Assembly: GCA_031423795.1 (NCBI GenBank)
Contig: JANPGH010000123.1
Span: forward strand, 14,206-78,205
Direction of reading: 5' to 3'
Source: Elusimicrobiota bacterium
Lineage (GTDB): Bacteria > Elusimicrobiota > Elusimicrobia > UBA1565 > UBA9628
Length of the DNA stretch: 64,000 nucleotides
The notes under the pieces were generated by a model. That model worked only from the letters and a program-made list of their open reading frames with translations. It ran no database searches and was not told where the DNA came from. Below are positions 2,950 to 45,666 of this stretch, piece after piece (the first letter of the stretch is position 1; each line of letters opens with the position of its first letter). Both the position numbers and the translations under genes were made by a program.

Positions 2950-2950
2950 C

Positions 2951-4171: not shown

Positions 4172-4205
4172 GCAACGATATTTTGAGCTATCGGACAGGA
4201 TTCCG

Positions 4206-4263
4206 ACAGGGTCATCGGGACCCCGCAACGTGGGATAAAAGACCCATCCTCGATATAATCGCC
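4206..4263. repeat. 58-bp conserved upstream element, copy 1
   Basis: acagggtcatCgggaccccgcaacgtgggataaaAgacccatcctCgatataatcgcc. It matches 5541..5598 at 55 of 58 positions and contains the dyad GGGTC-N5-GACCC. Confidence 0.85.
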
Positions 4264-4279
4264 CCACGTGCGACGCGGC

Positions 4280-5506: not shown

Positions 5507-5540
5507 ATAGCGTTAGTTTGACGAATCGAGTCTTCTTCGA

Positions 5541-5598
5541 ACAGGGTCATTGGGACCCCGCAACGTGGGATAAAGGACCCATCCTTGATATAATCGCC
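5541..5598. repeat. 58-bp conserved upstream element, copy 2 (divergent control region between paralog B and the GlpD-like gene)
   Basis: Same sequence as 4206..4263 with 3 substitutions. Dyad GGGTC ATTGG GACCC at 5544..5558. Confidence 0.85.
5586..5594 (+). promoter_or_regulatory. extended -10 promoter (TGATATAAT), probably giving a leaderless mRNA
   Basis: TG at 5586-87 and TATAAT at 5589-94. The GTG start at 5601 lies 6 nt after the -10 hexamer. There is no Shine-Dalgarno sequence. Confidence 0.45.
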
Positions 5599-5600
5599 GC

Positions 5601-6941
5601 GTGCCCTACGACCTCGTCGTGATCGGCGCCGGCGTAACGGGCGCGGGCGTGGCGCGCGACGCGGCGCTGCGCGGCCTCAAAGTCGCCCTGATTGAGCGCG
5701 GCGAGCCCGGTGGTGGAACGACTAAAGCCTCCACTCACCTAATTCATGGCGGTGTGCGCTATTTGCTGTACGACCGCCTGACCACGCACGCGACGTGCTG
5801 GGATTCCGGCCATATTGTGCGCACGGCCGGCGACCTGATGACCCGCCTGCCTATCGTTTGGCCGGTATATCGTGATCACAAGCGCGGCCTGGAAACCGTC
5901 GAGACTTTATTTGAGGAGTACGATCGGTTTCAGCCGATGAAATACGGTCGCCCACACTTGCGGCTAACTCCGCAAGCGTGTATATCCTTAATACCCGGCC
6001 TCAAGGCGGAGGGATTACGCGGCGCATTGGTATTCGATGAATGGTGGGTCGATGCGCAGGCGCTGGCCGCGCGCACATTGGATTCCGCCAAATCCGCGGG
6101 AGCAGAGGTATTAGTCAGAGCCGCGGCGGACGCTATACTCCGCGAAGGGACACGCGCCGTTGGAGTTAGGGCCGGAGGGAAGGAATTTCGCGGCAAGCTC
6201 GTGATCAACGCCGCCGGGCCCTGGGTGGACAAGGTCGCGCGTTTGGCTGGTGCCAGCCTGCCGCTCCGGCTGATGAAGGGCACGCATCTAATTTGGAATG
6301 ATCCAAAAAAAGTTCCCGTCGGCCTATTGCTCGAAGCGGCCGATCACGAACGATATGTCTTCGTCATTCCCTCGCCGTTGGGCACATGGGTCGGTCCCAC
6401 CGATTTGCCCGGACCCGCCGATCCGGACGCGGCGCGCACGACGCCCGAAGAGGCGAAATACCTGCTCGAATCCGTGCGCCGTTATTTTGCCGATTGGCCA
6501 ATGCAACCGGACGCGACGATCATCGGATCGCGCCCCATCCTGGGCCAGCCGGGCGCTGAGAAACTACTCTCCCGCGACTTCGAGGTGTTCGACCATGAGA
6601 CGCGCGACGGCGTCCCGGGACTGCTCACCATCGGCGGTGGAAAAATGTCCGACTACCGGGCCATGGCCGAAGCCACGGTCGACGCGGCCTGCCTCAAGCT
6701 CGGCATACGCACCAATGGAACCACCGCGCAGTTTAAGCTCGACGGTTCGGCCGTCGGCGAGATTCCCGACTGGAATCCTCCCGCGCCGGGGCTCAAGCAC
6801 TTCCTCAAGACCCGACCGCATCTGCGGGAACTACACGCTCTCGCCCATTTAGGAGGCGCCTTCGGCGCCCATCTGCTGCGGCGCGCGTTGGGACGCTGCC
6901 CGGATTCCGATATCGAAAAATTTCGCGACCACTATGCGTGA
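5601..6941 (+). CDS. FAD-dependent oxidoreductase, glycerol-3-phosphate dehydrogenase/oxidase (GlpA/GlpD)-like
   Basis: N-terminus DLVVIGAGVTGAGVARDAALRGLKVALIERGE...GTTKASTHLIHGGVRYL is the GlpD-type dinucleotide-binding signature. Substrate cannot be proven from sequence. Confidence 0.7.
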   Translation: MPYDLVVIGAGVTGAGVARDAALRGLKVALIERGEPGGGTTKASTHLIHGGVRYLLYDRLTTHATCWDSGHIVRTAGDLMTRLPIVWPVYRDHKRGLETVETLFEEYDRFQPMKYGRPHLRLTPQACISLIPGLKAEGLRGALVFDEWWVDAQALAARTLDSAKSAGAEVLVRAAADAILREGTRAVGVRAGGKEFRGKLVINAAGPWVDKVARLAGASLPLRLMKGTHLIWNDPKKVPVGLLLEAADHERYVFVIPSPLGTWVGPTDLPGPADPDAARTTPEEAKYLLESVRRYFADWPMQPDATIIGSRPILGQPGAEKLLSRDFEVFDHETRDGVPGLLTIGGGKMSDYRAMAEATVDAACLKLGIRTNGTTAQFKLDGSAVGEIPDWNPPAPGLKHFLKTRPHLRELHALAHLGGAFGAHLLRRALGRCPDSDIEKFRDHYA

Positions 6942-15320: not shown

Positions 15321-17360
15321 TTAAATCGCTTGGGCCTTCATCCCGTCGACCCATTGACGCAGGCCGGGATCGGGATTTTTGACCAGTACCGCCTCAAATT
15401 CCGCGATCGCCTCGCGCTGTCTCCCCATCTGCACGTAACACGTCCCCAAATACTGCCGCGCTTGCCAGAGTGAAGGATCCTGCGAGAGCGCGTATTCCAA
15501 ATACTGCGCCGCCTGCGGGAACTGCCCGGCGTCATGGCTTTGCACTCCCGCCGAGAAATAGGTTTGCGCCTGCGACGCCTGCGCCGGTGTGGCAAGTGCT
15601 GCGGGTGGAAGTGCTACGGGGGCCGCCGCATGCGCAGCGGCTCCCCCGCCCACCGCGGGACCCGAGCCCGCGCTGAGCAATTGCGCAACGGCCTGCTCGG
15701 CTGCGCGCGTGCGAGGTTCGTACTTGGCTCCCCGGTCGGAAGCCACTTCCTCGGTAAATCCGGAGAATGCGCCTCCACGGCTCTCACGGACGCTCACTTT
15801 TCCTTCCTTTTCCAAAACCTTGACGACGTCCATGATCTTCGAGCGCTCATCCTCGACCTGGCCGGCACTCAATCCCGAGGCGTACTCGATGGATTCCTTG
15901 AGCAAGGACGCCGCACCCGACGACATGTTCGACAGGAACTTGTTCAGGATGTCCGGGGCGGCGCCCTGGAGTGCCTTGGCCATCGATTCGGTCTTGAGTT
16001 CGCGCACGATCACTTGCATGTCGCGATCTGGGAAACCCACCACGTCCTCGAAGCTCATAATAAATTTGCGCACGCGCTGATAAACTTCGGGCTTCTCGTT
16101 CTTAAGATACTCCAGGATATTTGCCCGCGTCATCGTGTCCGCCTCATCGAGCAGTTGTGTCAGGCGCTCCATCCCGCCGACGACGAAATCCACGCTTTCC
16201 TTGATGTCGGCGTCTATCGCCATCAACTGTTCGCGCGTCACTTGGCGAAGTTTCAGGGCCTCGATGGCCACCTTCGCCTGCAGTTCCAGCGGCAACGCGG
16301 TTAGCGTCGCGCGCGCGAGATCCGACTTCATGTAGCTGAGCACGACGGCGATCAGCCACGGCTCGTCACCGCGAACCAGGAACAGGTTCCCGAGTCGCTT
16401 AAAGTTCTCCTCCGTGATGTAGGTGAACGGCTCGAACTTCTTCATGGCGTCCTCCACTTCTTCTTCCTCCGGCGGCGGAGGAGGCGCGTCGTCTGGCTTA
16501 CGGCCCATCATCACATCCAAAGCGGCGGCAGATTCCGACTCCTCGGTGCCGTCTCCCGATCCGTCCTCATCCTCGCCAGTGTCGAGCTTGGACTCGACGT
16601 TAACTTCGGCCGCCGGCTTTTCGCGCAACGCGGCGACATACTGACGGAAGAAGCGGGCGAGCGGTCCGAACAGGAACGAAAGAAAAAGCAGGAGGAGCAG
16701 CGCGTACAAAAGCGGCAGGTACACCGAGGGTTTCTTAAGGTCTTCCTTCCAATCCACCAACGGCGGCTTGTCGAATTGGGTCGGGCGGAAATCGATTTGA
16801 TCGTCGCCGAGCTTCTGGTAGTGGCTCATCGCGTCCTTGATGCGGTCGCGAACGACGTCCCGGGCTTTTTTGTCCTTAAGGACGCCGTCGTCGTGAATCA
16901 CGGTGACTTGGAGCCTTTTAAAGATGGGCTTGACGGAAAACCGCTGTTCGTCGACGCCTTTCATCTGTTGGGCTTGCTGGGCTTGCGATTGCTCGGGCTT
17001 TTCCGGATTTTGCTGGGCGGTGATCGTCTTGGGCTTGGGGATGCCAGGCAAGACGAACGTCGTCTGCATCCCACCGCGCGGCGCAGGCGCCTTCTCCTTG
17101 TATTTTTCGGCCACGCCCATACCGGTGCGCGTGGACTCCTGGCTCTCCGCCTTGACCTCCATTTCCACGTCGACGAACGCGGCGGCCTTGCCCTTGCCGA
17201 GCATGGTATCCAACACATCGTGTTGAATGCGCATTTCCGATTCGGCCTTTACCCGCGTCTGCTCCTGCAGCAGCGCCAAATCGGGCGCGACAACGGCCGC
17301 AAGCGCCGGAGTGAGTACCGGCGCCCCTAAGAGCAGGGCGGCGAGCAAATACATTTGCAT
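15321..17360 (-). CDS. FliF(YscJ)-like periplasmic segment + TM + FliG middle/C-terminal-like domains + TPR, in one polypeptide
   Basis: aa 1-25 signal/TM. aa ~40-200 carry VLDTMLGKGKAAAFVDVEMEV and FKRLQVTVIHDDG...RIKDAMSH...GDDQIDF (FliF ring-motif-like). TM at ~213-235. aa ~310-525 carry GGMERLTQLLDEAD... and FIMSFEDVVGFPDRDMQVIVRELKTESMAKALQGAAPDILNKFLSNMSSGAASLLKESIEY...KVLEKEGKV (FliG_M/FliG_C-like). aa ~600-679 are TPRs. Confidence 0.65.
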   Translation of the reverse strand: MQMYLLAALLLGAPVLTPALAAVVAPDLALLQEQTRVKAESEMRIQHDVLDTMLGKGKAAAFVDVEMEVKAESQESTRTGMGVAEKYKEKAPAPRGGMQTTFVLPGIPKPKTITAQQNPEKPEQSQAQQAQQMKGVDEQRFSVKPIFKRLQVTVIHDDGVLKDKKARDVVRDRIKDAMSHYQKLGDDQIDFRPTQFDKPPLVDWKEDLKKPSVYLPLLYALLLLLFLSFLFGPLARFFRQYVAALREKPAAEVNVESKLDTGEDEDGSGDGTEESESAAALDVMMGRKPDDAPPPPPEEEEVEDAMKKFEPFTYITEENFKRLGNLFLVRGDEPWLIAVVLSYMKSDLARATLTALPLELQAKVAIEALKLRQVTREQLMAIDADIKESVDFVVGGMERLTQLLDEADTMTRANILEYLKNEKPEVYQRVRKFIMSFEDVVGFPDRDMQVIVRELKTESMAKALQGAAPDILNKFLSNMSSGAASLLKESIEYASGLSAGQVEDERSKIMDVVKVLEKEGKVSVRESRGGAFSGFTEEVASDRGAKYEPRTRAAEQAVAQLLSAGSGPAVGGGAAAHAAAPVALPPAALATPAQASQAQTYFSAGVQSHDAGQFPQAAQYLEYALSQDPSLWQARQYLGTCYVQMGRQREAIAEFEAVLVKNPDPGLRQWVDGMKAQAI

Positions 17361-31599: not shown

Positions 31600-31677
31600 G
31601 GGGTCATGGTGTAGCTGGCCTAACACGCTGCCCTGTCAAGGCAGAGATCGCGGGTTCGAATCCCGTTGACCCCGCCA
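31600..31677 (+). tRNA. tRNA-Asp (anticodon GTC), CCA encoded
   Basis: GGGGTCATGGTGTAGCTGGCCTAACACGCTGCCCTGTCAAGGCAGAGATCGCGGGTTCGAATCCCGTTGACCCCGCCA. Anticodon loop is CTGTCAA. Confidence 0.9.
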
Positions 31678-33381
31678 GTTTAGCCTCAAATTAACCACCG
31701 CTGTTCCCTTGACAGGCTGCGGATGGGTTGAAGTATCGGTCGCATTTGCCTCCCGCCGTCTTAATGTCTCATGGGGGCCAAATGCGACCGCTTTTTTTCC
31801 TCCAAGGGCTCGCTGGAAATCGGAGATGGCGATTTCGTGCGTCTTCACGTCGATCCCATCCTTGCGGACCATCACTTCCCGAATCAGCAGCCCGATAATC
31901 TGGACTTGAAGCGATAGGGGAATCCTGTTGAAGAATCGCGCGAAGCGCTGCAACGCTCCCTGCACGACGTCAACGTCGTAGACCACGCGCTTCCTGAAGG
32001 CCAGCTGCGCCTCCAATTGGACCGAGTGGGCCTCGAGCGTTCTCTTCGTCTCTTCCAATCGGCCGACTTCCTCGGCGGCATTACGCGACGCCCCGCCCTG
32101 CTTGGCCAGATTTAACAGTCCCTGGATTTCCCGCTGAACGCCCTGGAGGCGGTCATCAACCTCACGCTTCTCCTTTTCGAGCGGCCGGATCGAGGCCTTA
32201 GAAAGAACATCGGCCTTCTGCGTCACCCTCTCCAAGAACGCCCGGTCCCAGCCGACCGCCGCCAATTTCTCGACCAGGTATTCCTCGACTTTGTCCGCGT
32301 TCACGCTCCCAAACGAGCACCGCGCCGAGATGCCGTTCCGTTGGGCCAGACACTTGTAATATCGGTACGTCTTGCCCTTCTTGATCCGAGCGTAACCGGC
32401 CACCACGCCGCCGCACACGCCGCACCGGATCAGGCCTTTGAGGAGAAAGCCATGCCTGTTCGCGGCGTAGTGAATCTCCCCGCCCCGGTGGTTGTGGCCG
32501 GCGAGCAATTTCTGGACGCGCTCGAAGACGTCGGGTGCCACGATAGCCTGATGCTGGCCGGGGAACTCCTTGCGGGTCCGCTCGTTGGTGATAAGCCCGA
32601 TGTAGAGCTTGCGCCGTAGCGTTCGCCCCACGGCGTCCATGTCCCAGGGCTTGCCACCATAAAGTTTGCCGATCAAAGTCTTGTAGGTCTTGCGGCGGTA
32701 GCCCAGGCGGTTGAGCTCCTCGGCCACGCGGATCGAGGACTCATGTTCGAGGTAGAGGGTGAAGATGCGCCGAACGAGATCGGCCTCGCTCTCGTTGACC
32801 ACCAGCAGCTTGTCCCTGATGTCGTAGCCAAGCGGCGGCAGCCCCGCGCACCATAGCCCTTTGCCGGCGCGGGCGAGATGAAAATCCTTGGACCTCTCCA
32901 CGTCCATCTCCCGGTCGTACTGGGCGAACTGGACCATGATCGCCGTCATAAGCCGGCCCTGCGGGCTCTTCGTGTCGATCGACTCCGTGGCCGAGATGAA
33001 GGCGACGTTGCGTTTCTCGAACAACTCCAGCAGATAGTGGAAATCCTTGCTGTTGCGAGTAAGCCTATCCAGCTTGTAGACGATGACGCCCTGGACCTTG
33101 CCCTCCTCGATGGCCTTGAGAAGCCGCTTGATGGCGGGGCGCTTGAGATTCTTTCCCGACTCGGCCGGATCATCGAAAGCCTCGGGGTACTCCTGCCACC
33201 CCTTCTCCCGCTGGATCGCTATGTAGCTGCGGGCGCAGGTCTTCTGGTTATCAAGCGAGGTGACGGCACCGTTGAGATTTTCGTCGTTGCTTTTCCTCGT
33301 GTAGATCGCGATCTGGACAGGGCGCGCTCCGACGGCCGCCGCCTCGCCGCCCATCACTCCCACCCCCTCATTGTTCGCCAT
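31636..33381 (-). CDS. large serine recombinase/integrase
   Basis: Resolvase catalytic N-terminus (VQIAIYTRKSNDE...YKLDRLTRN), recombinase domain, zinc ribbon (CGVCGG...YYKC) and C-terminal coiled coil. The last 14 codons (..WRGQRDSNPRSLP) are the reverse complement of tRNA-Asp. Confidence 0.85.
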   Translation of the reverse strand: MANNEGVGVMGGEAAAVGARPVQIAIYTRKSNDENLNGAVTSLDNQKTCARSYIAIQREKGWQEYPEAFDDPAESGKNLKRPAIKRLLKAIEEGKVQGVIVYKLDRLTRNSKDFHYLLELFEKRNVAFISATESIDTKSPQGRLMTAIMVQFAQYDREMDVERSKDFHLARAGKGLWCAGLPPLGYDIRDKLLVVNESEADLVRRIFTLYLEHESSIRVAEELNRLGYRRKTYKTLIGKLYGGKPWDMDAVGRTLRRKLYIGLITNERTRKEFPGQHQAIVAPDVFERVQKLLAGHNHRGGEIHYAANRHGFLLKGLIRCGVCGGVVAGYARIKKGKTYRYYKCLAQRNGISARCSFGSVNADKVEEYLVEKLAAVGWDRAFLERVTQKADVLSKASIRPLEKEKREVDDRLQGVQREIQGLLNLAKQGGASRNAAEEVGRLEETKRTLEAHSVQLEAQLAFRKRVVYDVDVVQGALQRFARFFNRIPLSLQVQIIGLLIREVMVRKDGIDVKTHEIAISDFQRALGGKKAVAFGPHETLRRREANATDTSTHPQPVKGTAVVNLRLNWRGQRDSNPRSLP

Positions 33382-33399
33382 AGACCGCGCCTCCCGCCA

Positions 33400-33576
33400 T
33401 CATGAATTACCTTCGTTCCCGCTTGGAATCAAGGCCTTTCTTCCCGGTTCTCCGACGAAAGATTCAGGCCCCAACTCTCCCGATTCGGCCAAGGCGACGA
33501 GCCCCTCAGCAAATAGATCGGCCAAAGCGTCCAGCCGATCCGCAGGCGTCGTCTGCCTCGGCGGTTCAAAATGCAT
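33400..33576 (-). CDS. small acidic hypothetical protein (58 aa)
   Basis: MHFEPPRQTTPADRLDALADLFAEGLVALAESGELGPE... Its ATG overlaps the upstream stop (TGATG). It lies 18 nt upstream of the recombinase start, which has a GGGAGG Shine-Dalgarno sequence. Confidence 0.35.
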   Translation of the reverse strand: MHFEPPRQTTPADRLDALADLFAEGLVALAESGELGPESFVGEPGRKALIPSGNEGNS

Positions 33577-33689
33577 CAGTCGTCCCATCCCAGCCGCCGC
33601 CCGCATGCTTCGCACAGGACCGAGGCCAAGGCGTCGGCCCGCTCCTCGGGGATCATCTGATCATCGGGATACCAACGCTGCGGCTTCAT
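33576..33689 (-). CDS. very small hypothetical protein (37 aa)
   Basis: MKPQRWYPDDQMIPEERADALASVLCEACGRRLGWDD. ATGA overlap with the upstream gene and a GGAGGG Shine-Dalgarno sequence. Below the track length cut-off. Confidence 0.3.
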   Translation of the reverse strand: MKPQRWYPDDQMIPEERADALASVLCEACGRRLGWDD

Positions 33690-34132
33690 GACCCACCCTC
33701 CTTCCTGCTGAGAAGGATGGAAATCACCTGGCCCGGATAGTGGAAGCTGGGCCAGGCGGCCACGTCGGCCTTAAGCCCGTGCCGCTCGCAGAACGCGACC
33801 AGCTTGCGCATCGTCTCCCACTCGAGACCGTAAGGCTGCGTGACGTACATGGCCGGCTTGCCGTTTTGAAGCCACAGCGTGTCATGATCTCCCGAGGGAG
33901 GGACGCAATCTTTCAAGTTGCATTGTCTGCCCCATAGCCGCTGCACACACAGCCTGCCATCCGACTGCTTGAATCCCTTGCCCGCGAACGCTTGGTAGTG
34001 GTTCTCGGCCACGGCCTCGGCATAAACCGAGCTCACCGCATCCATCCCTTGCGCCTCGAGCAGTTCCCGCAGCGCCCTCAAAGCCCGCAGGTATTGCTCC
34101 GTCCTTTTCTCGCCACTCGCAAACTGTCTCAT
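33686..34132 (-). CDS. hypothetical protein (148 aa)
   Basis: The start was moved to ATG 34132, preceded by AGGAGGAGGAG, just after the terL stop at 34146. No recognisable family. Confidence 0.5.
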   Translation of the reverse strand: MRQFASGEKRTEQYLRALRALRELLEAQGMDAVSSVYAEAVAENHYQAFAGKGFKQSDGRLCVQRLWGRQCNLKDCVPPSGDHDTLWLQNGKPAMYVTQPYGLEWETMRKLVAFCERHGLKADVAAWPSFHYPGQVISILLSRKEGGS

Positions 34133-34145
34133 AACGCTCCTCCTC

Positions 34146-35558
34146 CTAGATCCACCCCAGGTCATCACTAAACGCAATCCGCGGCTCGGTCCTTTGGACG
34201 TTCATCGCCCGAAGCGCCAAGACCAACGCGTCGAGCAAATCGTCGTCGCCGTTGGGAAAGTCCGTCATCTCTCCTTCAAGCTGAGAAACCCACTTGGCGA
34301 ACTCGGGCCGCGGAAGCCGCAACGTCCCATTCTCGACTAAGGGAGCCACGGCGCTGATACGCGCCTCCTTGGGATCGGTCACGGGAACCATCTTAAGCGG
34401 CATGCGCCGAGCCTCTGGATCAACGCGAAGAAGCTGGCCAAAAACGCCTTGATAACCCACCGACTCGGCGACGATGAGGACGGGGTTGAATACCCGCCAG
34501 ATGCGCTTGGCATGGGCGATCTGATCGACGACTCCAATTTGGCCGCGGAAAGCGTCGATGACGAAGGCAGTGCCCGCCTTGTCAAACCCAGCAACGACAT
34601 AAGCGAACTTCGAGGCGTTTTTCTTTTCGCTGATCGCCAAGTCGATTCCCACATACACTCGAAGGCCCTCGGGTATCTTGTCGAATCGGCCGCTTTCGAT
34701 CCATTCGACCCGAAACGTCGAGTCTTCCTGGCCAGTGATGTCATTTAGGAATTGGGTTCGGTAGGCCGAGCTGCCCATGTTGGCCCTGAGGCGATCAAGC
34801 GTCTCGGGCGGGAATTTCTCTGGGAAAAGAATCCTGCGGGTCCCATCGGCTTCCGTCCACTCGCTTCTTTGCTCGATCACTTTCCAGTTCTTAAAACCGG
34901 GATCGGACGCGATTATGCCGGCGAGATCGTCCTTATGCCACCGCGTCATGCAGATCACGATTTTTCCGTTGGGCTCCAAGATCGGCAGGACCGTCTTCTG
35001 AAACCAGGACAGGACTTTCTTGCGTTGAAAAGGCGAGCCGGAGTTTTTCTCGCCTTGAGGATCGTCGATAATGACCAAATCCGAGTGTTGGCTGACGATG
35101 GTGCCGCCCATGCCCGCCACGCTGATGCTGGGCTCTTTCAATATGCGATCGCGCGGGATCGTTATTTTCTCGCTGGTCCAGGTTTCGCTTAAAGTGCCCC
35201 AGTGGCCGTAGGTCTCCTTAAAGCGATCGGTGGATATATGGGCCTTGATTGCCCCTAGAAAATCGCGGGAATTCCCGAGGATCTCGTTGAGCAGGAGCAC
35301 CCTGAGATTTTTGTTCTGGGTCAGGCTCCATAAGGCAAAGGCGACGCTGATGCAACTCGTCTTCATATGGCCTCTGGGACTCAAAAGCAAGACGAATTGA
35401 TGGCGCAGGATTTCCTGGTACCAGCGGAGGTGGAACTCGGTTAAATCCCGATACCCACAAACATCGCGCGCGAAAGTGAAAAGATCGAGCAAGCGGGCCT
35501 GCTCTTGAGCGTCCATGGGAAGCAGCTTGCGGGGATCAGAGTCCATAGTCATAGGCAT
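34146..35558 (-). CDS. terL: phage terminase large subunit
   Basis: ATPase motifs LLLSPRGHMKTS (Walker A-like) and DLVIIDD (Walker B). C-terminal RNaseH-like nuclease motifs VYVGIDLA, AESVGYQ, DDLLDALVLAL. Confidence 0.75.
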   Translation of the reverse strand: MPMTMDSDPRKLLPMDAQEQARLLDLFTFARDVCGYRDLTEFHLRWYQEILRHQFVLLLSPRGHMKTSCISVAFALWSLTQNKNLRVLLLNEILGNSRDFLGAIKAHISTDRFKETYGHWGTLSETWTSEKITIPRDRILKEPSISVAGMGGTIVSQHSDLVIIDDPQGEKNSGSPFQRKKVLSWFQKTVLPILEPNGKIVICMTRWHKDDLAGIIASDPGFKNWKVIEQRSEWTEADGTRRILFPEKFPPETLDRLRANMGSSAYRTQFLNDITGQEDSTFRVEWIESGRFDKIPEGLRVYVGIDLAISEKKNASKFAYVVAGFDKAGTAFVIDAFRGQIGVVDQIAHAKRIWRVFNPVLIVAESVGYQGVFGQLLRVDPEARRMPLKMVPVTDPKEARISAVAPLVENGTLRLPRPEFAKWVSQLEGEMTDFPNGDDDLLDALVLALRAMNVQRTEPRIAFSDDLGWI

Positions 35559-35711
35559 CGCTCCTGGCGCAAAAACTGGCGCAAATTAAATTTTTGGGAT
35601 ACTTGCCCCGATCGGCGACCAAAAATCCCGCTTTTTCCATCAATGGCCCAGGAGCCGATTCTCCGTCGAGAAACGACTGCACCTAATACCCCATTAGGTG
35701 CGGTCAATGGG

Positions 35712-36278
35712 CTAACGTGGCGCATGTTTTTCCTCGCTCGGCGGCGCGTCGTAGGCGCTTGGGCCCGCCTCTGCGGCCTTTTCTAGAGCGGCGCGATCGG
35801 CCTCGTCCAGGCTCTTAACGGGCTCTACCGTTACCTCAACGATTTTGGGAGTCTCGATGACTTCAGACAGCGATCTCTGAAAAATCATCAAGGTTTCCGA
35901 CGCTTTTTGTCTCTCGGGCAGCCGAGGCACAGTCCTGGCAGCCGGCATCAACGTCCTCAGCTTGACTACGGCCTCGATCATGGAAGCCACGTCCCGCGGC
36001 GTGGACTTGGGGGCCAGAGCGATTCCCTGGCGCATATAGCTCTCAAGGACCGCCCAGAACAGCCGCTCGCGTTGGCGGGCGGTGCCGACCTGGGCCGACG
36101 CCTCCACGTTCTGCTCTTTGGCCTCGGCCGGCAACCTTGCGCTTTCCGCGCAGCGCCGCACCGAAGAGCGGGACATTCCTTTCTCTTTGGCCAGCGCCGA
36201 GGGGCTCTCGCCCGCCGCCACCCGGGCTGCGAGTTCGGCTATGAGCTCATTTTGGTATTTGGGTTTTCTGCCTTTCAT
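35712..36278 (-). CDS. HTH protein in the terminase small subunit position
   Basis: N-terminus KPKYQNELIAELAARVAAGESPSALAKEKGMSRSSVRRCAE is helix-turn-helix-like. It lies immediately upstream of terL. The TerS call rests on position only. Confidence 0.4.
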   Translation of the reverse strand: MKGRKPKYQNELIAELAARVAAGESPSALAKEKGMSRSSVRRCAESARLPAEAKEQNVEASAQVGTARQRERLFWAVLESYMRQGIALAPKSTPRDVASMIEAVVKLRTLMPAARTVPRLPERQKASETLMIFQRSLSEVIETPKIVEVTVEPVKSLDEADRAALEKAAEAGPSAYDAPPSEEKHAPR

Positions 36279-36317
36279 GTTTTGTTGCCTCCTCTAGGTT
36301 TATGAGCCAGCATCCTC

Positions 36318-36584
36318 TCAAGGCAGAAGATCGGTCTTGTCTGCCTTGAACCAGATTTCTTGGCAGCCGCCGCAGACTAAAACCAGGCGGTAGAGATCAG
36401 TGACTCGGCGATAGATCATGTGTACGCGCCAATCCCGGCTTCCACAGTTGCAGACAACCTGGGCCGGGTTTTCATCATAGGGCCACCGCTCTGTTGACTT
36501 GGTCGGCTTCAAATCCGGCATAGGACCACTGCTAGATTCAACAATCACGAGTCTTTTCATGCCGAACACCATTTCGTCTTTCAT
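36318..36584 (-). CDS. small Cys-pair (zinc-ribbon-like) protein
   Basis: VVCNCGSRDW...LVCGGCQEIW. Overlaps the upstream gene by 4 nt. Confidence 0.45.
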   Translation of the reverse strand: MKDEMVFGMKRLVIVESSSGPMPDLKPTKSTERWPYDENPAQVVCNCGSRDWRVHMIYRRVTDLYRLVLVCGGCQEIWFKADKTDLLP

Positions 36585-36982
36585 GACTTACCTCCGTTTT
36601 TATTTATTTTTTTGCCTTCTGTAGGTCTTACGTCAAACCAGGGCATAAACGTAACTTTGTCCTGTTTTTTAGAAAGCACGACGCCCACGCGCTTGCTTCC
36701 CACCTGCCACAGCCGGCCGGCGCCAAGCGGCGTGGCGACAGTCTTGTTCACAAAAGGATAAAGGCGCGCTGGACCTTGGCCGAATTTCGCCTCGCATTCG
36801 CGGCTCTCAGCCGGCCACGGAATGCCCAGGTAAGCCAAGACCTCCGCTTTGCGGCTCTTGATCTCGGCCGGCAACTCGGCGGCCTGGGACGGAGCGCAGG
36901 CGTGGGCACACTTGTAGCGAAGCGCGCCATCGTGGATGGAGAGGCAATAGCCCAGCTCGCGGAGCGCCTCGACAACTCTCAT
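36581..36982 (-). CDS. hypothetical protein (133 aa)
   Basis: ATGA overlap with the primase gene stop. No recognisable family. Confidence 0.45.
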   Translation of the reverse strand: MRVVEALRELGYCLSIHDGALRYKCAHACAPSQAAELPAEIKSRKAEVLAYLGIPWPAESRECEAKFGQGPARLYPFVNKTVATPLGAGRLWQVGSKRVGVVLSKKQDKVTFMPWFDVRPTEGKKINKNGGKS

Positions 36983-39900
36983 AGCGAGCCCTCCATGAGA
37001 TCGAGCTCGGCTTGACCCTCGGCCGGTGAACCTGGTGAACCTGCGGGCATAGGTTCACTCTGAGGTTCACTTTGAAATTCCGATTTATTTTCCAGGTGAA
37101 AACCGTTAGTCAGTGAACCTGGTGAACCTGTTTGGCACTCACCGTTTCCTCCCGGTATATATATTTCTTTTTCATGAGGAAAAATCTCCTCGCCTCGTGC
37201 ATATGGGTTGGAAAAAGGTTCACTAGGTTCACCGTCATCGGATAGCATTGGATTTACAATCACTTTTTTAGGTGAACCTATCGGTGAACCTGGGGTGAAC
37301 CTCGCCGGAGGTTCACCTACGGGCGTCGCCTCGGCCTGACTGGGCATGGCTACAAGCCGCCATTTCTTGGCCCGCTGGCGCTCCCCGACCAAAACGATCC
37401 GCAAGCTCTCGAACTGGCGGTCGCGCAGCTTGACCAATTCCTGGCCCAACTTCGTCTTTTGAGCTTTTTCGGTACCCTTGCCGAGGTCGATAGGCTCGTC
37501 CAAAGCATTCGCCAGCTCAAAGAGCTCGGAAACGCCGACCTCTTGGTCGCCGAACTTCTCCCACCAAACTTTCACGAATCCGCGCCAGATGGCTCCCTCG
37601 AAATCCGAGTTCGAATAAAGATCGGCGAGGTTGCCCAAGAATCCCTTGATCCCAGCCACCTCGAGAATCCCGCCCATGATCCGACTCCAAGAATCGAACA
37701 TTCCAAGGGCCTGGCCTTTCCAAAGCGGGCGACCGGCCGCAAACCAGGCTCGAATCAAAGTCAGCGCCGACCAAAGAAGCTCCGCTCGGTGCTCCCTGAC
37801 CCAGCTGCGCAGATCCGGATGCCGGAATCCTTGCCTGAGCCATGGACAGTCCACCTTGGCGTCCAGGCGAATGCGGACGGTTCGACGGGATACCTCATGC
37901 GACAGCGAGGCATTATTTCCACTCGCAATCCAAACCGCTCGCACCGGAAGGCGGATAATCTTGGACTGGCCCAGGATTCGGTCCTCCCAAAAAGAGCAGG
38001 TCAGCGCCGATGAAAACGCCGCCGAGTCCAGACGTCGTCTTAGGTTGTCGATGACGATGATGCTGGGCAGCCCCATCAATTTCGAAGAAATCCTCTTTCG
38101 CATCTCGTCCTCATCGCGGCCCTCGGTCATCAAGGCCGGCCAGCGGCCCAAGGCGATGTAAGCCAGGACCTCCGTTAAAAGGCCCTTGCCGGTCCCCGGC
38201 GAGGGAGCCTCGATGAGGTGCAGCGGGGTGGGGCCGTCGATCAATTCTCGTATCAACGGCAGAAGGACAATGGCTATCGCATGAGCTAGCTCGGAATCGC
38301 TGACGAACGGGAAATCCCAAAGCAGATCCCTGATCAAGCCGGTCGCCTTTTCGATCTCAGATGATGTCGGCCGATCGGAAACGGGCGGCAGGGAAAATCC
38401 AGGCAGCGGCGCGTAATATGTGCGGCCAAGTTCGTGATAGCCGGGCGTTGATTGCAGGCTGCCGTTGTTGAAAAAGACGGGGAATTCGATGATTCGATTT
38501 AAGATCGGTAGCGGAGGGTTAGGATCAGCCAGCATGTCGCGAACCATATCCATCGGCGGAGGGACAGGAATGATGCTCTCCTCCTCGCCCTTCTTTTTGA
38601 TGATGAAGAAATGCGCGGCACGAGCCAACGCATGCCGCGTCCGGTCGAGGTTGAGATCTCGGGATATCTCGATACTCTCGTCGTCCCTCTCGATGCGCAT
38701 CAAGAGGCCCCCGCAGCGGAAGTAACGCTCCGGCCGGTTGGCCTTGTTTAGAGCCCTCCAAGCCTTCGCCGCGGTCCGTTTAAGCTCGCCATCCTCGGCA
38801 GAGATCCAAGGGAGATCGTCGCCCTGTTCTGCGAACTCGGAATCATCTTGAGAACCGCCGGGGATGGATTGATGTCGGGGCTCCTTGGCCTTTTCCTTTT
38901 CCAGCCGCCTCTGCTCGGAGAGAACCTGGTCTAGGAGCTTGGGCTTAAGGCCGGTGATTTTCTCGATTTCTTCAAGAGCCCGCTTGCGCTCAAGGGCGGG
39001 GCAACGCACGAGGCGGCCGATCGCCTCCGTCAGAAGCGCGTTGCGCTCCTTTTCATCCGCGGCCGCGGGCCACTTTTCCTTAATGGTCGCCAGCTCCGCG
39101 TCCACATCGACCGGCGGCTGCTCCGGCGCTTTCTTGACGCCATCGCGCTCACGCCACAATCCCAACGACTTCAAGACGCCTTTCTTGTGCCGGTCCCAGC
39201 CGATCACGTCCTTAAAATCTTTCCAGTGAGCGTTGCTGTCGTGCTTGCAGGAGGCCGAGTAGCGGCCATCGGCCTCGACCATGACGCAGCACTCAAAAGT
39301 GTGGCCGTCGTCATCTTTGTGGTGAGGGCATTTCTCAAAAATGAAAAGCGTCCGCCCGCCTTTCTCTTCTTTTCGAAAGCCAAAACCGGATAGAGTCAGA
39401 ACACCTTCCAAAACCGCGAGACCCTCCTCGCGCGTCCAGGAGCGTTTGCCGTCGGAAGTTGGCGCGGCAGGTTGAACAGAAGAAGGCTTTGGCTTCTGCC
39501 GCTCCTTGAGTTCTTGACGATACGCATCCAGTACGTCCTTGAGTTTGGCGAAGAGGTCGATGTCTTCCGGGGCCGCATTGGGATCGATGCTCGCCCAGCG
39601 ATGCGGCCGCTTGCCCACCAGGTTGGCGCCTTTTACGTTCAACGTGCCATAAAGCCGCAGGATGCGCGCGGGATTAAAGATGGTCGTATCCACCTTGGCT
39701 TGGCCCGTGTTGAAATGTTCCGCAAGCCAGTGAAGCAGGAGCTTCGACTCTTCCGCGGCCCGGGCCAGGTCCTCGCCTTTGTAAGGAATGGTCGGAATGA
39801 GCAGGTGATAGCCGTTGCCCGAGTCCGCCCAGATCGCCTCGATCCCGTTTTCCAAGAACCACTCTCTGACCTTCTGGGCGACCAAAAAAGCGCCTTGTTT

Positions 39901-40425
39901 TTCCTCGTCGCTGGCTGAAATTTGACTTTTGCGCTCGGGATCGACATCTACGCCGAACATGTCATATGCGACGATGTCCGCATCCGAGGTGGTCTGCTCG
40001 GCATACTTGATGCAGTTCGCCACACGGCCAAGAAGATCGGGGTCGACAGGTCGTAGACTGAAATAGATATTGGCTTCGCCGATCCGCGGGTAATCCCCGT
40101 AGGGAAGTTTTGATCTAGGCGAGATAGATAGCGGCTGGATCGCTTTGATGAGCTCACGCCAATGATCCTTGTCAAAATAACCACACCACACAGCCTTCTT
40201 TCCGCCGGACCCACCAAGGATGCGTACTTCAGTGACGCCGCCGTGCGCGTCGTGCCGGGCCGTGATCCACTGCACAAATGGAATAAGGCTCTCCCGGCAT
40301 GCGGGAGACTCCAGGTACAGCTTGGTTTCACCGACTGGTTCTTTCATCATTTTTCCTGTCCCAACAAAAAGGCGCTGCCCCCCGGCCTTTAGGCCGGAGT
40401 GGCAGCGCCTCGGTTTTCCCGACAA
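36979..40425 (-). CDS. primase-polymerase (AEP) fused to a P-loop helicase-like domain; replication initiator
   Basis: AEP motifs FGVDVD, SGNGYHLLI and NPARILRLYGTLNVKG. Cys/His cluster CPHHKDDDGHTFEC...CKH. P-loop-like APSPGTGKG and Walker-B-like SIIVIDN. The C-terminal tail is encoded by the iteron array. Confidence 0.7.
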   Translation of the reverse strand: MSGKPRRCHSGLKAGGQRLFVGTGKMMKEPVGETKLYLESPACRESLIPFVQWITARHDAHGGVTEVRILGGSGGKKAVWCGYFDKDHWRELIKAIQPLSISPRSKLPYGDYPRIGEANIYFSLRPVDPDLLGRVANCIKYAEQTTSDADIVAYDMFGVDVDPERKSQISASDEEKQGAFLVAQKVREWFLENGIEAIWADSGNGYHLLIPTIPYKGEDLARAAEESKLLLHWLAEHFNTGQAKVDTTIFNPARILRLYGTLNVKGANLVGKRPHRWASIDPNAAPEDIDLFAKLKDVLDAYRQELKERQKPKPSSVQPAAPTSDGKRSWTREEGLAVLEGVLTLSGFGFRKEEKGGRTLFIFEKCPHHKDDDGHTFECCVMVEADGRYSASCKHDSNAHWKDFKDVIGWDRHKKGVLKSLGLWRERDGVKKAPEQPPVDVDAELATIKEKWPAAADEKERNALLTEAIGRLVRCPALERKRALEEIEKITGLKPKLLDQVLSEQRRLEKEKAKEPRHQSIPGGSQDDSEFAEQGDDLPWISAEDGELKRTAAKAWRALNKANRPERYFRCGGLLMRIERDDESIEISRDLNLDRTRHALARAAHFFIIKKKGEEESIIPVPPPMDMVRDMLADPNPPLPILNRIIEFPVFFNNGSLQSTPGYHELGRTYYAPLPGFSLPPVSDRPTSSEIEKATGLIRDLLWDFPFVSDSELAHAIAIVLLPLIRELIDGPTPLHLIEAPSPGTGKGLLTEVLAYIALGRWPALMTEGRDEDEMRKRISSKLMGLPSIIVIDNLRRRLDSAAFSSALTCSFWEDRILGQSKIIRLPVRAVWIASGNNASLSHEVSRRTVRIRLDAKVDCPWLRQGFRHPDLRSWVREHRAELLWSALTLIRAWFAAGRPLWKGQALGMFDSWSRIMGGILEVAGIKGFLGNLADLYSNSDFEGAIWRGFVKVWWEKFGDQEVGVSELFELANALDEPIDLGKGTEKAQKTKLGQELVKLRDRQFESLRIVLVGERQRAKKWRLVAMPSQAEATPVGEPPARFTPGSPIGSPKKVIVNPMLSDDGEPSEPFSNPYARGEEIFPHEKEIYIPGGNGECQTGSPGSLTNGFHLENKSEFQSEPQSEPMPAGSPGSPAEGQAELDLMEGSL
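37025..37317. repeat. iteron array (GGTGAACCT / AGGTTCACC) flanking an AT-rich tract: candidate replication origin
   Basis: Twelve copies of the core GTGAACCT/AGGTTCAC, starting at 37025, 37034, 37051, 37063, 37112, 37121, 37216, 37225, 37271, 37283, 37294 and 37309, plus a degenerate copy at 37095. Both orientations occur. An AT-rich stretch gtatatatatttctttttcatgaggaaaaatc at 37155..37186 lies between the two iteron clusters. Confidence 0.7.
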
Positions 40426-40435
40426 CGCTATTGCT

Positions 40436-40615
40436 TTACGAGTTTTTCAGTGTTTCCGCTTCGAAGTCGTGCATTTTCAGTGTCTCTTCGATCTTGACAT
40501 GGACAATTTTTCCGTTCTCCCAACAGAGGATGGTCTTGCCAAAAAAGCGCTTCGCGCGCGTACGCCGAATCCATTTCAGAAGCAGCTCATCGGTGATATG
40601 CGAGTTTCCATTCAT
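40436..40615 (-). CDS. small hypothetical protein (59 aa, YezD/DUF2292-like pattern)
   Basis: MNGNSHITDELLLKWIRRTRAKRFFGKTILCWENGKIVHVKIEETLK... The internal ATG was chosen so that the ORF does not overlap 40636..40929. Confidence 0.35.
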   Translation of the reverse strand: MNGNSHITDELLLKWIRRTRAKRFFGKTILCWENGKIVHVKIEETLKMHDFEAETLKNS

Positions 40616-40635
40616 GGCTATCTTCACGCTAATTC

Positions 40636-40929
40636 TTACGCGCAAGCCTCGGACCTGAAAACCTCGACCTTGAAAGAATCGCGCCCCATCGTCTTCCTCA
40701 GCGATTCCAAGAAAAGTCGGATTAGGTACTCCCCGCAACCCGGCTGCCCCTCGATGATCCAGCCAGGATTTCGGCCAGAGCGCATCATCCCGACTTCCTG
40801 AAGGCGCTTCCTCCCAAACAATGGCTCGACCGTGGCGCAGGCCTCGGCCAAGAGCCGCGAGGCGAGCTTGAGGTCCGCCGCGCTCTTAAATCGAATGCCG
40901 TAGAGCTCCGCCTCCGTCTTCATCGTCAT
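40636..40929 (-). CDS. hypothetical protein (97 aa)
   Basis: ATG is preceded by AAGGGGGA. No recognisable family. Confidence 0.4.
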   Translation of the reverse strand: MTMKTEAELYGIRFKSAADLKLASRLLAEACATVEPLFGRKRLQEVGMMRSGRNPGWIIEGQPGCGEYLIRLFLESLRKTMGRDSFKVEVFRSEACA

Positions 40930-40994
40930 GATTCCCCCTTGCCCGTCCTAACTTTCACACTCCGCTTCATTTCGCTACCCTAATCGGCAAAAAA

Positions 40995-41888
40995 TTATTC
41001 TAACTGATGCGCCAAATGAAGGGCTTGGTACCGCGTTGGCGTATTGAGCGGCAGCATTGCCCCCGTGTCCAGCTTCTCCTTTTGCCGGCCCCGGGCGATC
41101 AGCCCGCAGAATCGGCTGGTCATGAGCTGGGATAAATAGGCCTGCGCCGCGCTGAACGTGCAGGTCGTCAAGGGAACATTTCGATGAGCCGCCACGCATT
41201 CCTCCCAATGTATCCGTTGAATCACATGATCCAACTCGTCGCGGCACTTGATGGCGTAATCAGGTCCGACCTTGATCTTGCCCCCGGAACGAGCGTAACA
41301 AACGAGATCCAACGCTTTTAGGAATCCGGAAAAATACCCGAACTGGGTCGTGCGCAGCGCCTCTTCTATTTTCTCGTGAGCCCGCTGCTGAACTACTAAT
41401 CCCCAGGTGTAATCGGCGAGACTGATCATCAGGGTCAGATAATAGAGGTTCGCGGCCTCGTGTCCCAGGTCAGCGTCCGTCTTCTCCCGCTGCGGCGCCA
41501 GCTCGTGAAGCTCCTTAAGCATCTTGAGAAATAGATCGAAAAAGCCGTCCAGGTACTCGGCCAGCAGTTTGTGCACGGCCTTCTTGAATTCAGGCTCCGA
41601 GGCCCATTTTCTCTCCAAGGTATAGCTGCTCTCGATTCTTTCCGCGAGCAGCTTATGGCTGCGAAGAGTCCAGTTGCCGAGGACCAGCATGAGCACTTGC
41701 GCCATGAATTTCTTTTTGGGGACCGGGCGCTTCTCATCGCGCGGGATGCCCTTGCGCTCGGGCTCCGCGTAGTTCTGGCATTTCTTAAAGGTCCACTCCA
41801 CGAGATCGAATCGCAGCACGAACTCCTCGCGGCTGAGAAACGGTCGCGGAGGATTAAGGCGCGTCATCCGATCCATCACATCTACCAT
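40995..41888 (-). CDS. hypothetical all-helical protein (298 aa)
   Basis: The start was moved to ATG 41888 (MVDVMDRMTRL...), immediately downstream of its own promoter. The track ORF start at 41984 would overlap the XerD-like gene. Confidence 0.5.
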   Translation of the reverse strand: MVDVMDRMTRLNPPRPFLSREEFVLRFDLVEWTFKKCQNYAEPERKGIPRDEKRPVPKKKFMAQVLMLVLGNWTLRSHKLLAERIESSYTLERKWASEPEFKKAVHKLLAEYLDGFFDLFLKMLKELHELAPQREKTDADLGHEAANLYYLTLMISLADYTWGLVVQQRAHEKIEEALRTTQFGYFSGFLKALDLVCYARSGGKIKVGPDYAIKCRDELDHVIQRIHWEECVAAHRNVPLTTCTFSAAQAYLSQLMTSRFCGLIARGRQKEKLDTGAMLPLNTPTRYQALHLAHQLE

Positions 41889-41898
41889 GGTAGCAATA

Positions 41899-41926
41899 TT
41901 ATTACAGATGTTAATATAGTTGTCAA
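41899..41926 (-). promoter_or_regulatory. strong promoter in an AT-rich island (TTGACA-16-TAATAA / TGtAATAAT)
   Basis: The minus strand reads TTGACAACTATATTAACATCTGTAATAATATTGCTACCATG. The ATG lies 9-10 nt after the -10, giving a leader of 0-3 nt. Confidence 0.5.
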
Positions 41927-41956
41927 GGGCTTTTGCGAACCGTTTTTCTGCAAGGA

Positions 41957-42841
41957 TCAGAACCGCGGATGCGCCCGCTCGCAAGTCTCACGCATAAAGG
42001 CGGCGCTTACATGGGTGTATCTTTGAGTCGAGGTCACACTCCGATGCCCTAAAATTTCCTGCACGACCCTGAGGCTTGCTCCCCCTTCGAGGAGCCGTGT
42101 CGCCGCACTGTGGCGGATTTTGTGGGGATGCACGCCATCCTTGAGTCCCGCTCGGCGCGCAAGCTCCCGGAGCTGACACCAGAAGTCCGTCCTTGAAATC
42201 GGCCGGCCGCGATAGCTTAGAAACAGAATCTCCCGCTCTCCGGGAAAGTGTTTCTGCCTTGAGGACAGGTACTTTGTCAGAGCTTCTTGAGCACGCGGAC
42301 CCAGGGGCAAAACCCTCTCGCGCCCGCCTTTGCCATGCACGCGGACCCAGCCTTCCTCCATATTAAGCTGATCCAACTTTAGGTTGGCCATTTCGGAAAC
42401 CCTCATACCAGTCGTGTAGAGCATCTGAAGCGCAGCGCGAGTCCGCACGAGATGAAACTTGTCGCCCGTGGGCATCGCCAGAAGTTTTTCCATATCGACA
42501 CTGGTCAAGGGCTCGGGCAAGCGCTGCTTATACTTCGGCAAGCTCATGCCGGCAGTTGGGTCGCAAGCAGCCGCTCCTCGATCCCTGAGAAAACGATGAA
42601 ATTGGCGGACAGCGATTGCCGCGGAAAAAACGCTCGCGCTTCTTAACCCATCGTTCTTGCGCCGCTCGAGGTAAGCCAGGACGTCCTCACGGCCGGCTGA
42701 ACAAACCTCGAGTTGCCGCGCCGCCAGGAATTTGAGGTAGCTCCTGATCTGATAGCGATATGAAGACCAGGTGCGCGGAGACAGATTACGCTCCACATTA
42801 AGATAGCGAATGAATTCATCCAACAGGCTCCCATCGCTCAT
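41957..42841 (-). CDS. XerC/XerD-family tyrosine recombinase
   Basis: N-terminal SAM-like domain (FIRYLNVERNLSPRTWSSYRYQIRSYLKFL). Catalytic residues in context: TGMRVSE...HKIRHSAATRLLEGG...LGHRSVTSTQRYTHV. Confidence 0.8.
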   Translation of the reverse strand: MSDGSLLDEFIRYLNVERNLSPRTWSSYRYQIRSYLKFLAARQLEVCSAGREDVLAYLERRKNDGLRSASVFSAAIAVRQFHRFLRDRGAAACDPTAGMSLPKYKQRLPEPLTSVDMEKLLAMPTGDKFHLVRTRAALQMLYTTGMRVSEMANLKLDQLNMEEGWVRVHGKGGRERVLPLGPRAQEALTKYLSSRQKHFPGEREILFLSYRGRPISRTDFWCQLRELARRAGLKDGVHPHKIRHSAATRLLEGGASLRVVQEILGHRSVTSTQRYTHVSAAFMRETCERAHPRF

Positions 42842-43200
42842 GGTTTCCTCGCTCGGCCCATTACAAGTTCGTAGTCTCGATCACAACCTCGACTATCATA
42901 GAGCTATCCCCATCGTTCGTTTGCCGACCCGATTCCGCGAACCTTACCATCGGGACAGCATGAAGTTACAGCGATTTCGCTAAGGAAGCAAGGCCTTTCT
43001 TCGTCGGAAAGACGAGAATCTTCGCCGAATTCGCAACACGTTGCGACGTTCGGCCTGGAATTCAGGGCTCCGAACCGGGGACATAAATCGCTCGAGTTCG
43101 GGGGAAGAGGGTTACAACATGGAAAGTATCGCTATCACCGACCGCGATCTTGCGGCGCCGGATGGTGAAGTACAGGATGCTTTCATGTTTCGCGACTCAA

Positions 43201-45666
<2,466 letters not shown>

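Follow-up and report, generated by a model that had tools for sequence, protein, structure and literature searches.

A capsid-less integrative element with its own terminase genes at tRNA-Asp in Elusimicrobia

Gene content of the locus

We analysed a 64,000-nucleotide stretch (hereafter the window) of an Elusimicrobiota bacterium genome (GCA_031423795.1, contig JANPGH010000123.1, positions 14,206 to 78,205), in which an uninterrupted series of minus-strand open reading frames (ORFs) occupies 31.6-43.0 kb, from a tRNA-Asp gene to ~43.0 kb. In order of transcription, this integrative element encodes a XerD-like tyrosine recombinase, the all-helical protein p298, the small protein p97, a replicase in which an archaeo-eukaryotic primase (AEP) PrimPol is fused to a P-loop helicase, the small proteins p133 and p88, a small terminase subunit (TerS)-like protein, a large terminase subunit (TerL), three small ORFs and, next to tRNA-Asp, a large serine recombinase. 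At least seven further metagenomic lineages contain collinear relatives (loci L002, L009, L001, L022-28, L030 and L031), recovered through homologues of TerL and the replicase; one lineage and a fragment were contributed by a metagenome scan. The element family, found in groundwater Elusimicrobia, is previously undescribed.

Several genes are joined by stop/start overlaps, at 36979-36982 (coupling p133 to the replicase), 36581-36584, 33686-33689 (ATGA, which starts a 37-aa ORF) and ~33576 (TGATG). Scans of the element ORFs against Pfam and PHROGs (p37 unscanned, p71 outside the PHROGs scan) revealed no structural, tail or lysis family and no conjugation or mobilisation gene; NCBIfam and PADLOC scans (p37 unscanned, p88 outside the NCBIfam scan) added no structural family, and no PADLOC defence model matched the element. 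Besides p298, the ORFs without assigned function encode at most 163 aa. Capsid, portal, tail and lysis genes were likewise missing from the flanks, over ~20 kb on the right and ~30 kb on the left. Both flanks are cellular, with tRNA-Val, BioY, a CHASE2 Ser/Thr kinase, PP2C, FHA and POR on the left and a CopA-type ATPase, MgtC/DUF4010, an RNase J-like protein, an RND efflux system and PPK2 on the right. The window also encodes, at 15321-17360, a 679-aa protein in which TPR repeats are joined to the middle and C-terminal domains of FliG; it adjoins a second TPR protein, and no other flagellar gene was found among the ORFs scanned.

Every gene call that an initial annotation had made from the raw sequence holds up against the Pfam, PHROGs and NCBIfam matches and the AEP motifs and fold, and the overlaps it listed are real. 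It had given the 298-aa ORF its own promoter, and a sigma70-like site lies just upstream; its AEP PrimPol and helicase call is borne out by invariant motifs, an AEP fold and a match to phrog_19930. The serine recombinase ORF does end inside tRNA-Asp as described, its last 13 codons and stop being antisense to the tRNA, and the reported absence of virion and lysis genes extends to all ORFs scanned, including those within ~20 kb beyond 42.8 kb.

Replication and terminase modules

The replicase (36979-40350; 1122/1148 aa) had no sequence match in Pfam or the PDB. Across 31 homologues, D135-x-D137 (DxD), S177-G-N-G180-x-H182 (SGNGxH) and D221 are invariant, and residues 10-290 of the AlphaFold2 (AF2) model, predicted with pLDDT >90, match the LigD-Pol, Prim-PolC, CAPP and archaeal PriS folds (Foldseek probability 1.00, E from 7e-5), so that the DxD, sGxGxH and hD motifs that define AEPs are found on an AEP fold. 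The C-terminal half contains a GTGKG Walker A motif, read from the sequence, and matches phrog_10537, phrog_29234 and phrog_19930 ('DNA polymerase/primase'); its homologues carry DUF3987/YfjI, D5_N, DUF5906 or AAA_25, which is the neighbourhood of the P4/D5 helicases.

Twelve copies of the iteron GGTGAACCT (at most one mismatch, both orientations) surround an AT-rich core in a 293-bp segment (37025-37317) at the 3' end of the replicase gene. The whole 64-kb window holds 20 matches to the iteron, and the 63.7 kb outside the array account for only eight of them. The array underlies the last 120 residues of the replicase, which are predicted to be disordered (pLDDT <30), and all 12 iterons are kept in number, order and orientation in L002, L009 and L024/25, where the surrounding DNA is 70-80% identical. 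This conserved iteron array in the replicase 3' end is a new finding; it has the anatomy of an iteron origin, and we infer that it is a candidate replication origin.

TerL (34146-35558, 470 aa) matches phrog_38 (5.8e-84) and Terminase_6C (4.8e-10). In an alignment of 36 TerLs the Walker A lysine K66, Walker B D165/D166 and the nuclease residues D306, D440 and D443 are conserved, and the window copy departs from no conserved column. Pairwise Nei-Gojobori comparisons of the window with L002, L009, L001 and L025 gave a dN/dS of 0.07 for TerL, the strongest constraint among the element genes; judged by these residues, the enzyme is catalytically intact. The 188-aa protein encoded upstream (35712-36278) matches HTH_7 (7.5e-6) and weakly the TerS family phrog_1482, with nothing significant in a profile search against PDB sequences. 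It is 36-41% identical to a 180-188-aa protein encoded directly upstream of TerL in the complete prophages L003-L008, and this conserved position supports its assignment as TerS. On the other side of TerL lies p163 (33686-34150; ~149-154 aa from an internal ATG), whose homologues directly follow TerL in the window, L002, L024/25, L030 and L031 with 51-79% identity. Of the six capsid-less lineages, five have this 149-163-aa protein next to TerL, and it is absent after TerL in phages; it evolves under constraint (dN/dS 0.13-0.23) and has no Pfam, PHROG, PADLOC, NCBIfam or PDB match.

Complete Elusimicrobia prophages hold the TerL homologues P0010, P0014 and P0024, with 70%, 69% and 53% identity. 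Their gene order runs AAA_24, DEAD helicase, a 1108-1110-aa protein, the 180-188-aa protein, TerL, small ORFs, portal (with Mu F), methyltransferase, S78 protease and HK97 capsid, with the portal within 0.5 kb after TerL. The terminase module is the only part that these prophages and the element have in common: the 1108-1110-aa proteins show no detectable homology to the element replicase, except for a 17-aa stretch resembling AEP motif III, and a 126-aa prophage protein considered as a p133 homologue proved unrelated and was rejected. In an unbootstrapped neighbour-joining (NJ) tree, the TerLs of the capsid-less lineages form one clade, sister to the phage-context TerLs. The tips of this clade are the window copy, L001, L002, L025, L030, L031 and four close relatives with unchecked context, genomic context having been checked for five of nine tips, and its TerLs are 465-466 aa long except for the 470-aa window copy. 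This topology fits a single capture of TerL followed by diversification, and the element TerS and TerL are, on present similarities, descended from the terminase of HK97-capsid Elusimicrobia prophages. Deposited phages contain no TerL that is more than 30% identical, and an IMG/VR scan with TerL returned only phages, complete and up to 53% identical.

The post-TerL protein of phage L006 has a homologue in L030 and L031, a zinc-ribbon protein of 61 aa. As for the prophages themselves (L006 13898-19297; L003 13786-16224; L007 11406-12179), they encode very large MethyltransfD12-containing proteins of up to 1799 aa directly after the portal, and one of them has a Mom-like protein directly after TerL, which suggests that DNA-modification cargo is heavy in the packaging module of these phages.

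Integration site, accessory genes and the wider family

The 581-aa serine recombinase (31636-33381), the presumed integrase, matches the phrog_95 integrase family (4.7e-109) and combines a catalytic resolvase domain (PF00239, 8.7e-31), a recombinase domain (PF07508, 1.2e-15) and a zinc ribbon (Zn_ribbon_recom, PF13408, 1.8e-11) in more than 450 aa, as large serine recombinases do; its top NCBIfam match is CcrB, with a score below the cut-off. It is 61-62% identical to the L001 and L002 copies (dN/dS 0.20-0.27). The final 13 codons and stop of its gene lie antisense to the 3' end of tRNA-Asp(GTC) (31600-31677, plus strand; found by ARAGORN and Rfam), the integration target, and the same tRNA gene adjoins the serine recombinase in the window, L001, L002 and L031. 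A 58-aa protein (33400-33576; 71 aa from GTG 33615) contains a motif, (P)EERLDALAEVLAEGxxYLAE, that recurs in L001, L002 and L031 in the ORF just before the serine recombinase gene. The PEERLDALAEVLAEG motif is common to all the small proteins encoded immediately upstream of a serine recombinase; as L030, the variant with a tyrosine integrase, has no such protein, it is a candidate partner or directionality factor of the recombinase. The neighbouring 37-aa ORF (p37, 33576-33689), translationally coupled at both sides, is weakly similar to the N-terminus of a 72-aa protein of L002.

The closest host relative is L029, a 428-kb Elusimicrobia scaffold that is syntenic with window 17-31 kb (kinase 69% identical). 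The similarity ends 4 nt beyond the end of tRNA-Asp, and L029 carries at the same tRNA-Asp a different element (1-5717) with a 556-aa serine recombinase, 29% identical to that of the window, whose ORF likewise terminates within the tRNA gene. The cargo of the L029 element is unannotated and consists of 68-, 276-, 208-, 341- and 458-aa proteins. tRNA-Asp appears to be a hot spot for elements borne by large serine recombinases in Elusimicrobia. The tRNA genes themselves are imperfect: that of L001 (5024-5101) has two acceptor-stem mismatches (3-70 T·C and 4-69 C·C), those of L031 (4470-4547) and L029 (5640-5717) each have one G·U where the 5' strand predicts a Watson-Crick pair, and the L002 contig breaks exactly in the T-loop. 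The imperfect acceptor stems of L001, L029 and L031 suggest that the 3' strand of the tRNA comes from the element and that the crossover would lie inside the tRNA gene.

At the opposite end of the element from the dedicated integrase, the 294-aa XerD-like protein (41957-42841) matches Phage_integrase (1.2e-47). It scores 286.3 bits against the 329.6-bit cut-off of TIGR02225, below the level of a XerD equivalog, and passes only the generic tyrosine-recombinase subfamily PRK00283 (285 against 279). The gene is present in L002, L009, L024-27 and L030 with 54-74% identity, always in this position. We rejected the possibility that it is the host's own XerD, as the gene accompanies the element in five lineages and its product stays under the equivalog cut-off; the enzyme is presumed to be a multimer resolvase rather than an integrase.

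A near-consensus sigma70-like site (TTGACA-17-AATAAT with an upstream TG, 41926->41898) lies just before the p298 start codon at 41891. The AF2 model of p298 (40995-41891, 298 aa) is all alpha (pLDDT 87, pTM 0.84), and neither PDB nor BFVD contains a neighbour with an E-value below 0.3. As the model is all alpha with no viral fold neighbour, we rejected the idea that this protein is a hidden HK97 capsid or portal. Its 102 remote homologues are conserved over residues 30-130, and a few of them weakly match helix-turn-helix (HTH) or TerS-HTH Pfam families. The conserved N-terminal region and these weak matches in relatives suggest that p298 may be a DNA-binding regulator with a probable N-terminal HTH. 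Two of the small proteins evolve as ordinary constrained genes: p133 (36581-36982) is 63-79% identical in L002, L009 and L025 (dN/dS 0.14-0.25), with no family match in Pfam or PHROGs and nothing significant in a PDB profile search, and p97 (40636-40929), also without a family match, is 75-85% identical in L002 and L009 (dN/dS 0.17). The 88-aa p88 (36318-36584) is confined to the window and L009, being absent from L002, L024 and L030; its DNA is 92-96% identical between the two copies against an element average of 79%, with dS 0.08 and dN/dS 0.83. It looks like a recently exchanged small accessory cassette or a conserved cis-acting site, not an ordinary gene.

Among the relatives, L002 (a 10,988-bp contig, GCA_016207665.1) is collinear with the window, at 76% DNA identity, over the span bounded by the XerD-like and serine recombinase genes, and ends inside the antisense of tRNA-Asp, and L009 is 80% identical from the XerD-like gene into TerL. 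L001 and L031 have TerS, TerL, small ORFs and a serine recombinase ending in tRNA-Asp, followed by host genes (tRNA-Glu and others in L001, RlmD-like in L031). L024-L028 have in common the segment from the XerD-like gene through p149 and continue with proteins of 180 and 820 aa and an integrase of the tyrosine type. In L030 the XerD-like gene is present, the place of the replicase is taken by a different protein of 933 aa, and TerS, TerL, p149, the 61-aa protein and a tyrosine integrase follow, next to host genes. Five TCCATAC copies within 200 bp (L030 9540-9720), downstream of this integrase at the host junction, look like putative arm-type integrase binding sites. The conserved core of the family is the XerD-like recombinase, the replication module, TerS, TerL, p149/163 and an exchangeable integrase at the host junction, the integrase module swapping between serine and tyrosine types.

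Replicase identity among the capsid-less copies is 67-82%. With the exception of p88, the shared genes have dS values of 0.4-3.4 (0.8-1.7 in the large genes) and a dN/dS of 0.07-0.28, apart from one divergent p298 pair at 0.54, and the compared ORFs contain a single internal stop, in p133 of L009. The GC content of the element is 0.55-0.62, and that of the adjoining host DNA is 0.47 in L031, 0.59 in the window, 0.64 in L001 and 0.67 in L030; four lineages occupy tRNA-Asp with differing host flanks. The GC contrast, the differing flanks and the selection together show horizontal movement between distinct hosts, and argue against a decaying, vertically inherited remnant.

Comparison with known satellites and alternative explanations

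We propose, with a probability of roughly 0.6, that these elements are a modular, integrative, self-replicating and capsid-less family, known so far from Elusimicrobia, that behaves like satellites with their own terminase. As they carry a phage-derived packaging enzyme but no shell genes, the elements probably depend on a helper phage and travel in its capsids. Under such a scheme, a helper phage of a related lineage would infect the cell or be induced, and the serine recombinase would excise the element, possibly aided by the small protein encoded just upstream. The PrimPol-helicase would initiate replication at the iterons, and the XerD-like enzyme would resolve multimers. The element's own TerS and TerL, with p163, would recognise element DNA and pump it into helper procapsids via the helper portal, after which helper tails would complete the particle. 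In a new cell, the serine recombinase would integrate the element into the 3' part of tRNA-Asp, for which the element would supply a replacement. More tentatively, at slightly under even odds, the family may represent a satellite class that carries TerS, TerL and the TerL-linked 149-163-aa protein, steals only procapsids and tails and is free of helper packaging specificity; the ORF of its tRNA-targeting serine integrase would span the junction, with C-termini that differ between the integrated and excised forms.

By its predicted functions the element most resembles a phage-inducible chromosomal island (PICI). PICIs are ~10-15 kb long and insert at a specific site; they have an integrase at one end, their own primase/replicase with an iteron origin and a small terminase that confers packaging specificity, but lack genes for virions and lysis (PMC10085698). 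The element similarly has an end integrase at a specific chromosomal site (tRNA-Asp in the window, L001, L002 and L031) and its own replicase with a candidate iteron origin. In contrast, PICIs use the TerL of the helper, whereas the element carries a full-length TerL and so falls outside the PICI definition; it further differs in its large serine recombinase (tyrosine in variants), its second, XerD-like recombinase and its host phylum, Elusimicrobia. No Stl, AlpA or MerR repressor profile matched the element, in which the LexA-like repressor is intact in L009 and a pseudogene in the window. Capsid-forming PICIs (cf-PICIs) encode phage-derived TerS and TerL (PMC10085698; bioRxiv 10.1101/2022.09.08.507074), as does the element, but also a capsid, portal, protease and head-tail adaptor/connector, so that they steal only tails. 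None of these genes is present among the scanned element ORFs. The integrase of PLE, the satellite of Vibrio cholerae, is a large serine recombinase. According to PMC11417361, PLE encodes a replication initiator of its own and manipulates the packaging motor, and both PLE and P4 depend on the helper's TerL. PLE differs in using the TerL of ICP1, a RepA_N-type initiator and integration at VCR repeats, and has no sequence relationship to the element family. P4-like satellites integrate in tRNA genes and have a fused primase-helicase, and the element helicase half falls in the same D5_N/DUF5906/DUF3987 neighbourhood; however, P4 is without terminase genes, relies on Sid, Psu and Delta and on the P2 cos site and has a tyrosine-recombinase integrase, whereas the primase domain of the element is an AEP PrimPol and no PHROG or Pfam match to Sid, Psu or Delta was found in it. 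A conceptual parallel, a helper-type ATPase on a plasmid replicon, comes from the archaeal pSSVx/SRCEs, in which a plasmid-type replicon is combined with an incomplete morphogenetic module that can include a packaging-type ATPase (bioRxiv 10.1101/2025.02.15.638363), but these belong to the spindle-shaped-virus realm, with another ATPase family and in another domain of life. Full-text literature searches returned no bacterial satellite described with TerS and TerL yet without capsid genes.

The initial annotation had left open whether the locus is a satellite or a prophage remnant. For the family as a whole, the data favour a satellite-like element equipped with its own terminase, and the window copy is partly decayed. 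The annotation's description of the locus as one long operon was too simple for a modular family with a tyrosine integrase in some members and a different replicase in one. The TerL phylogeny it had proposed places the capsid-less TerLs as a cluster beside those of complete prophages (NJ, no support values), and the inactivated TerL that it had named as a sign of decay was not what we found, the window copy having conserved catalytic residues and a dN/dS of 0.07. A comparison with relatives carrying an empty tRNA-Asp site, intended to define attL and attR, did not succeed: no empty site was found in a syntenic relative, and the site of the closest host, L029, is occupied.

Decay of the window copy is evident in its right arm. 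Upstream of the XerD-like gene, L009 and L002 encode a 282-aa protein and L009 also an intact, 142-aa LexA-like repressor (phrog_362). The 100 bp upstream of the window XerD-like gene encode only the C-terminal third of such a repressor (remnant at 42867-43019, minus strand), located in the syntenic place by tblastn with the L009 protein (60% identity over 25 aa, E = 9e-6). Beyond it lie a palindrome and then CopA. The long palindrome, GCCGAATTCGCAACACGTTGCGACGTTCGGC at 43020-43055, separates the CopA stop codon from the remnant; it may serve as terminator of CopA or mark a deletion or junction point of the right arm. No displaced tRNA-Asp 3' fragment, direct repeat or attR stood out above chance at 42780-43260, whether by repeat search, by pattern matching that allowed 3 mismatches or by local alignment compared with a null. 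The window copy has lost its regulatory arm and probably attR too, and may be locked in place, unable to excise; its eleven other genes are intact.

Several observations weigh against a mobile satellite. The repressor remnant of the window has an internal stop and is without the N-terminal HTH, attR is not recognisable there, and the right end of the element is undefined at every locus examined. No helper phage, excised circle or encapsidated copy was observed, and no pac or cos site was identified, P4-type cos not having been tested. An IMG/VR scan with the replicase returned nothing, so the element is absent from that collection. The contigs of L009 and L002 end in extra genes past the XerD-like gene, so larger versions are possible there. 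Finally, TerL is frameshifted (425 + 40 aa) in L024 (6415-7811) and L026 (5611-7007) and intact (465 aa) in L025 (5793-7190) and L027 (5996-7393), in four contigs of one lineage that come from different samples and encode an identical replicase protein; the frameshift could be an assembly error, a real polymorphism or decay.

The frameshifts, the pseudogenised repressor, the missing attR and the clearly phage-derived TerS and TerL would all suit a decayed prophage, a functionless deletion derivative that kept the replication-to-terminase segment and is inherited vertically. We consider this the least probable of the explanations weighed, because the same capsid-less gene set persists across near-saturated synonymous sites with a dN/dS of 0.07-0.28 and ORFs intact except for the p133 stop of L009, in hosts that differ in flanks and GC; moreover, the replicase differs from those of related phages, integrase modules have been exchanged, and in the NJ tree the TerLs group together instead of being scattered among phage TerLs. 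The truncated right arm also leaves room for the window to hold one end of a larger temperate phage with a permuted map, its int/attP between terL and portal and, in intact copies, its structural genes beyond the XerD-like gene, the window copy being a truncated version. Extra genes do lie upstream of this gene in L009 and L002, where the contigs end, and the contigs of all relatives break at or near it. Against such an arrangement, which we regard as improbable, the portal follows TerL within 0.5 kb in related complete prophages, while here integrases of three types come directly after TerL-p163 and are followed by host DNA, a split that would be unusual in every lineage. Furthermore, L009 has small regulators and not structural genes upstream of the XerD-like gene, among them the LexA-like repressor, and in IMG/VR the replicase is absent and TerL is found at up to 53% identity, in complete phages.

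The strong conservation of TerL without cognate capsid genes could alternatively reflect interference, in which an integrative, plasmid-like element spreads by other means and uses TerS and TerL as an anti-phage device that cuts or mis-packages phage DNA or titrates the portal. Packaging motors are known targets of satellites and prophages, as described in PMC11417361 and bioRxiv 10.1101/2025.02.27.640495, and no size-redirection or capsid gene was found with Pfam or PHROGs. This explanation is unlikely, if somewhat less so than the other two: PADLOC gave no defence match, and the elements have no conjugation or mobilisation gene yet have spread across hosts of different GC, for which some vehicle is required. 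Interference and self-packaging are, in any case, not mutually exclusive.

If the proposed satellite with its own terminase is correct, it would bear on how packaging is divided between satellites and helpers. Known bacterial satellites either borrow the motor from the helper (P4, PICI, PLE) or carry it together with their own capsid (cf-PICI), and TerS and TerL kept under strong selection without capsid genes would be an intermediate between both groups. A terminase maintained to dock on a foreign portal would bear on the evolution of packaging specificity and helper range. Side products would be serine integrases that target a conserved tRNA-Asp site and a compact PrimPol-helicase replicon with a clearly defined candidate iteron origin. 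For the Elusimicrobia, an uncultivated and little-studied groundwater phylum, it would document satellites together with a likely lineage of helper phages.

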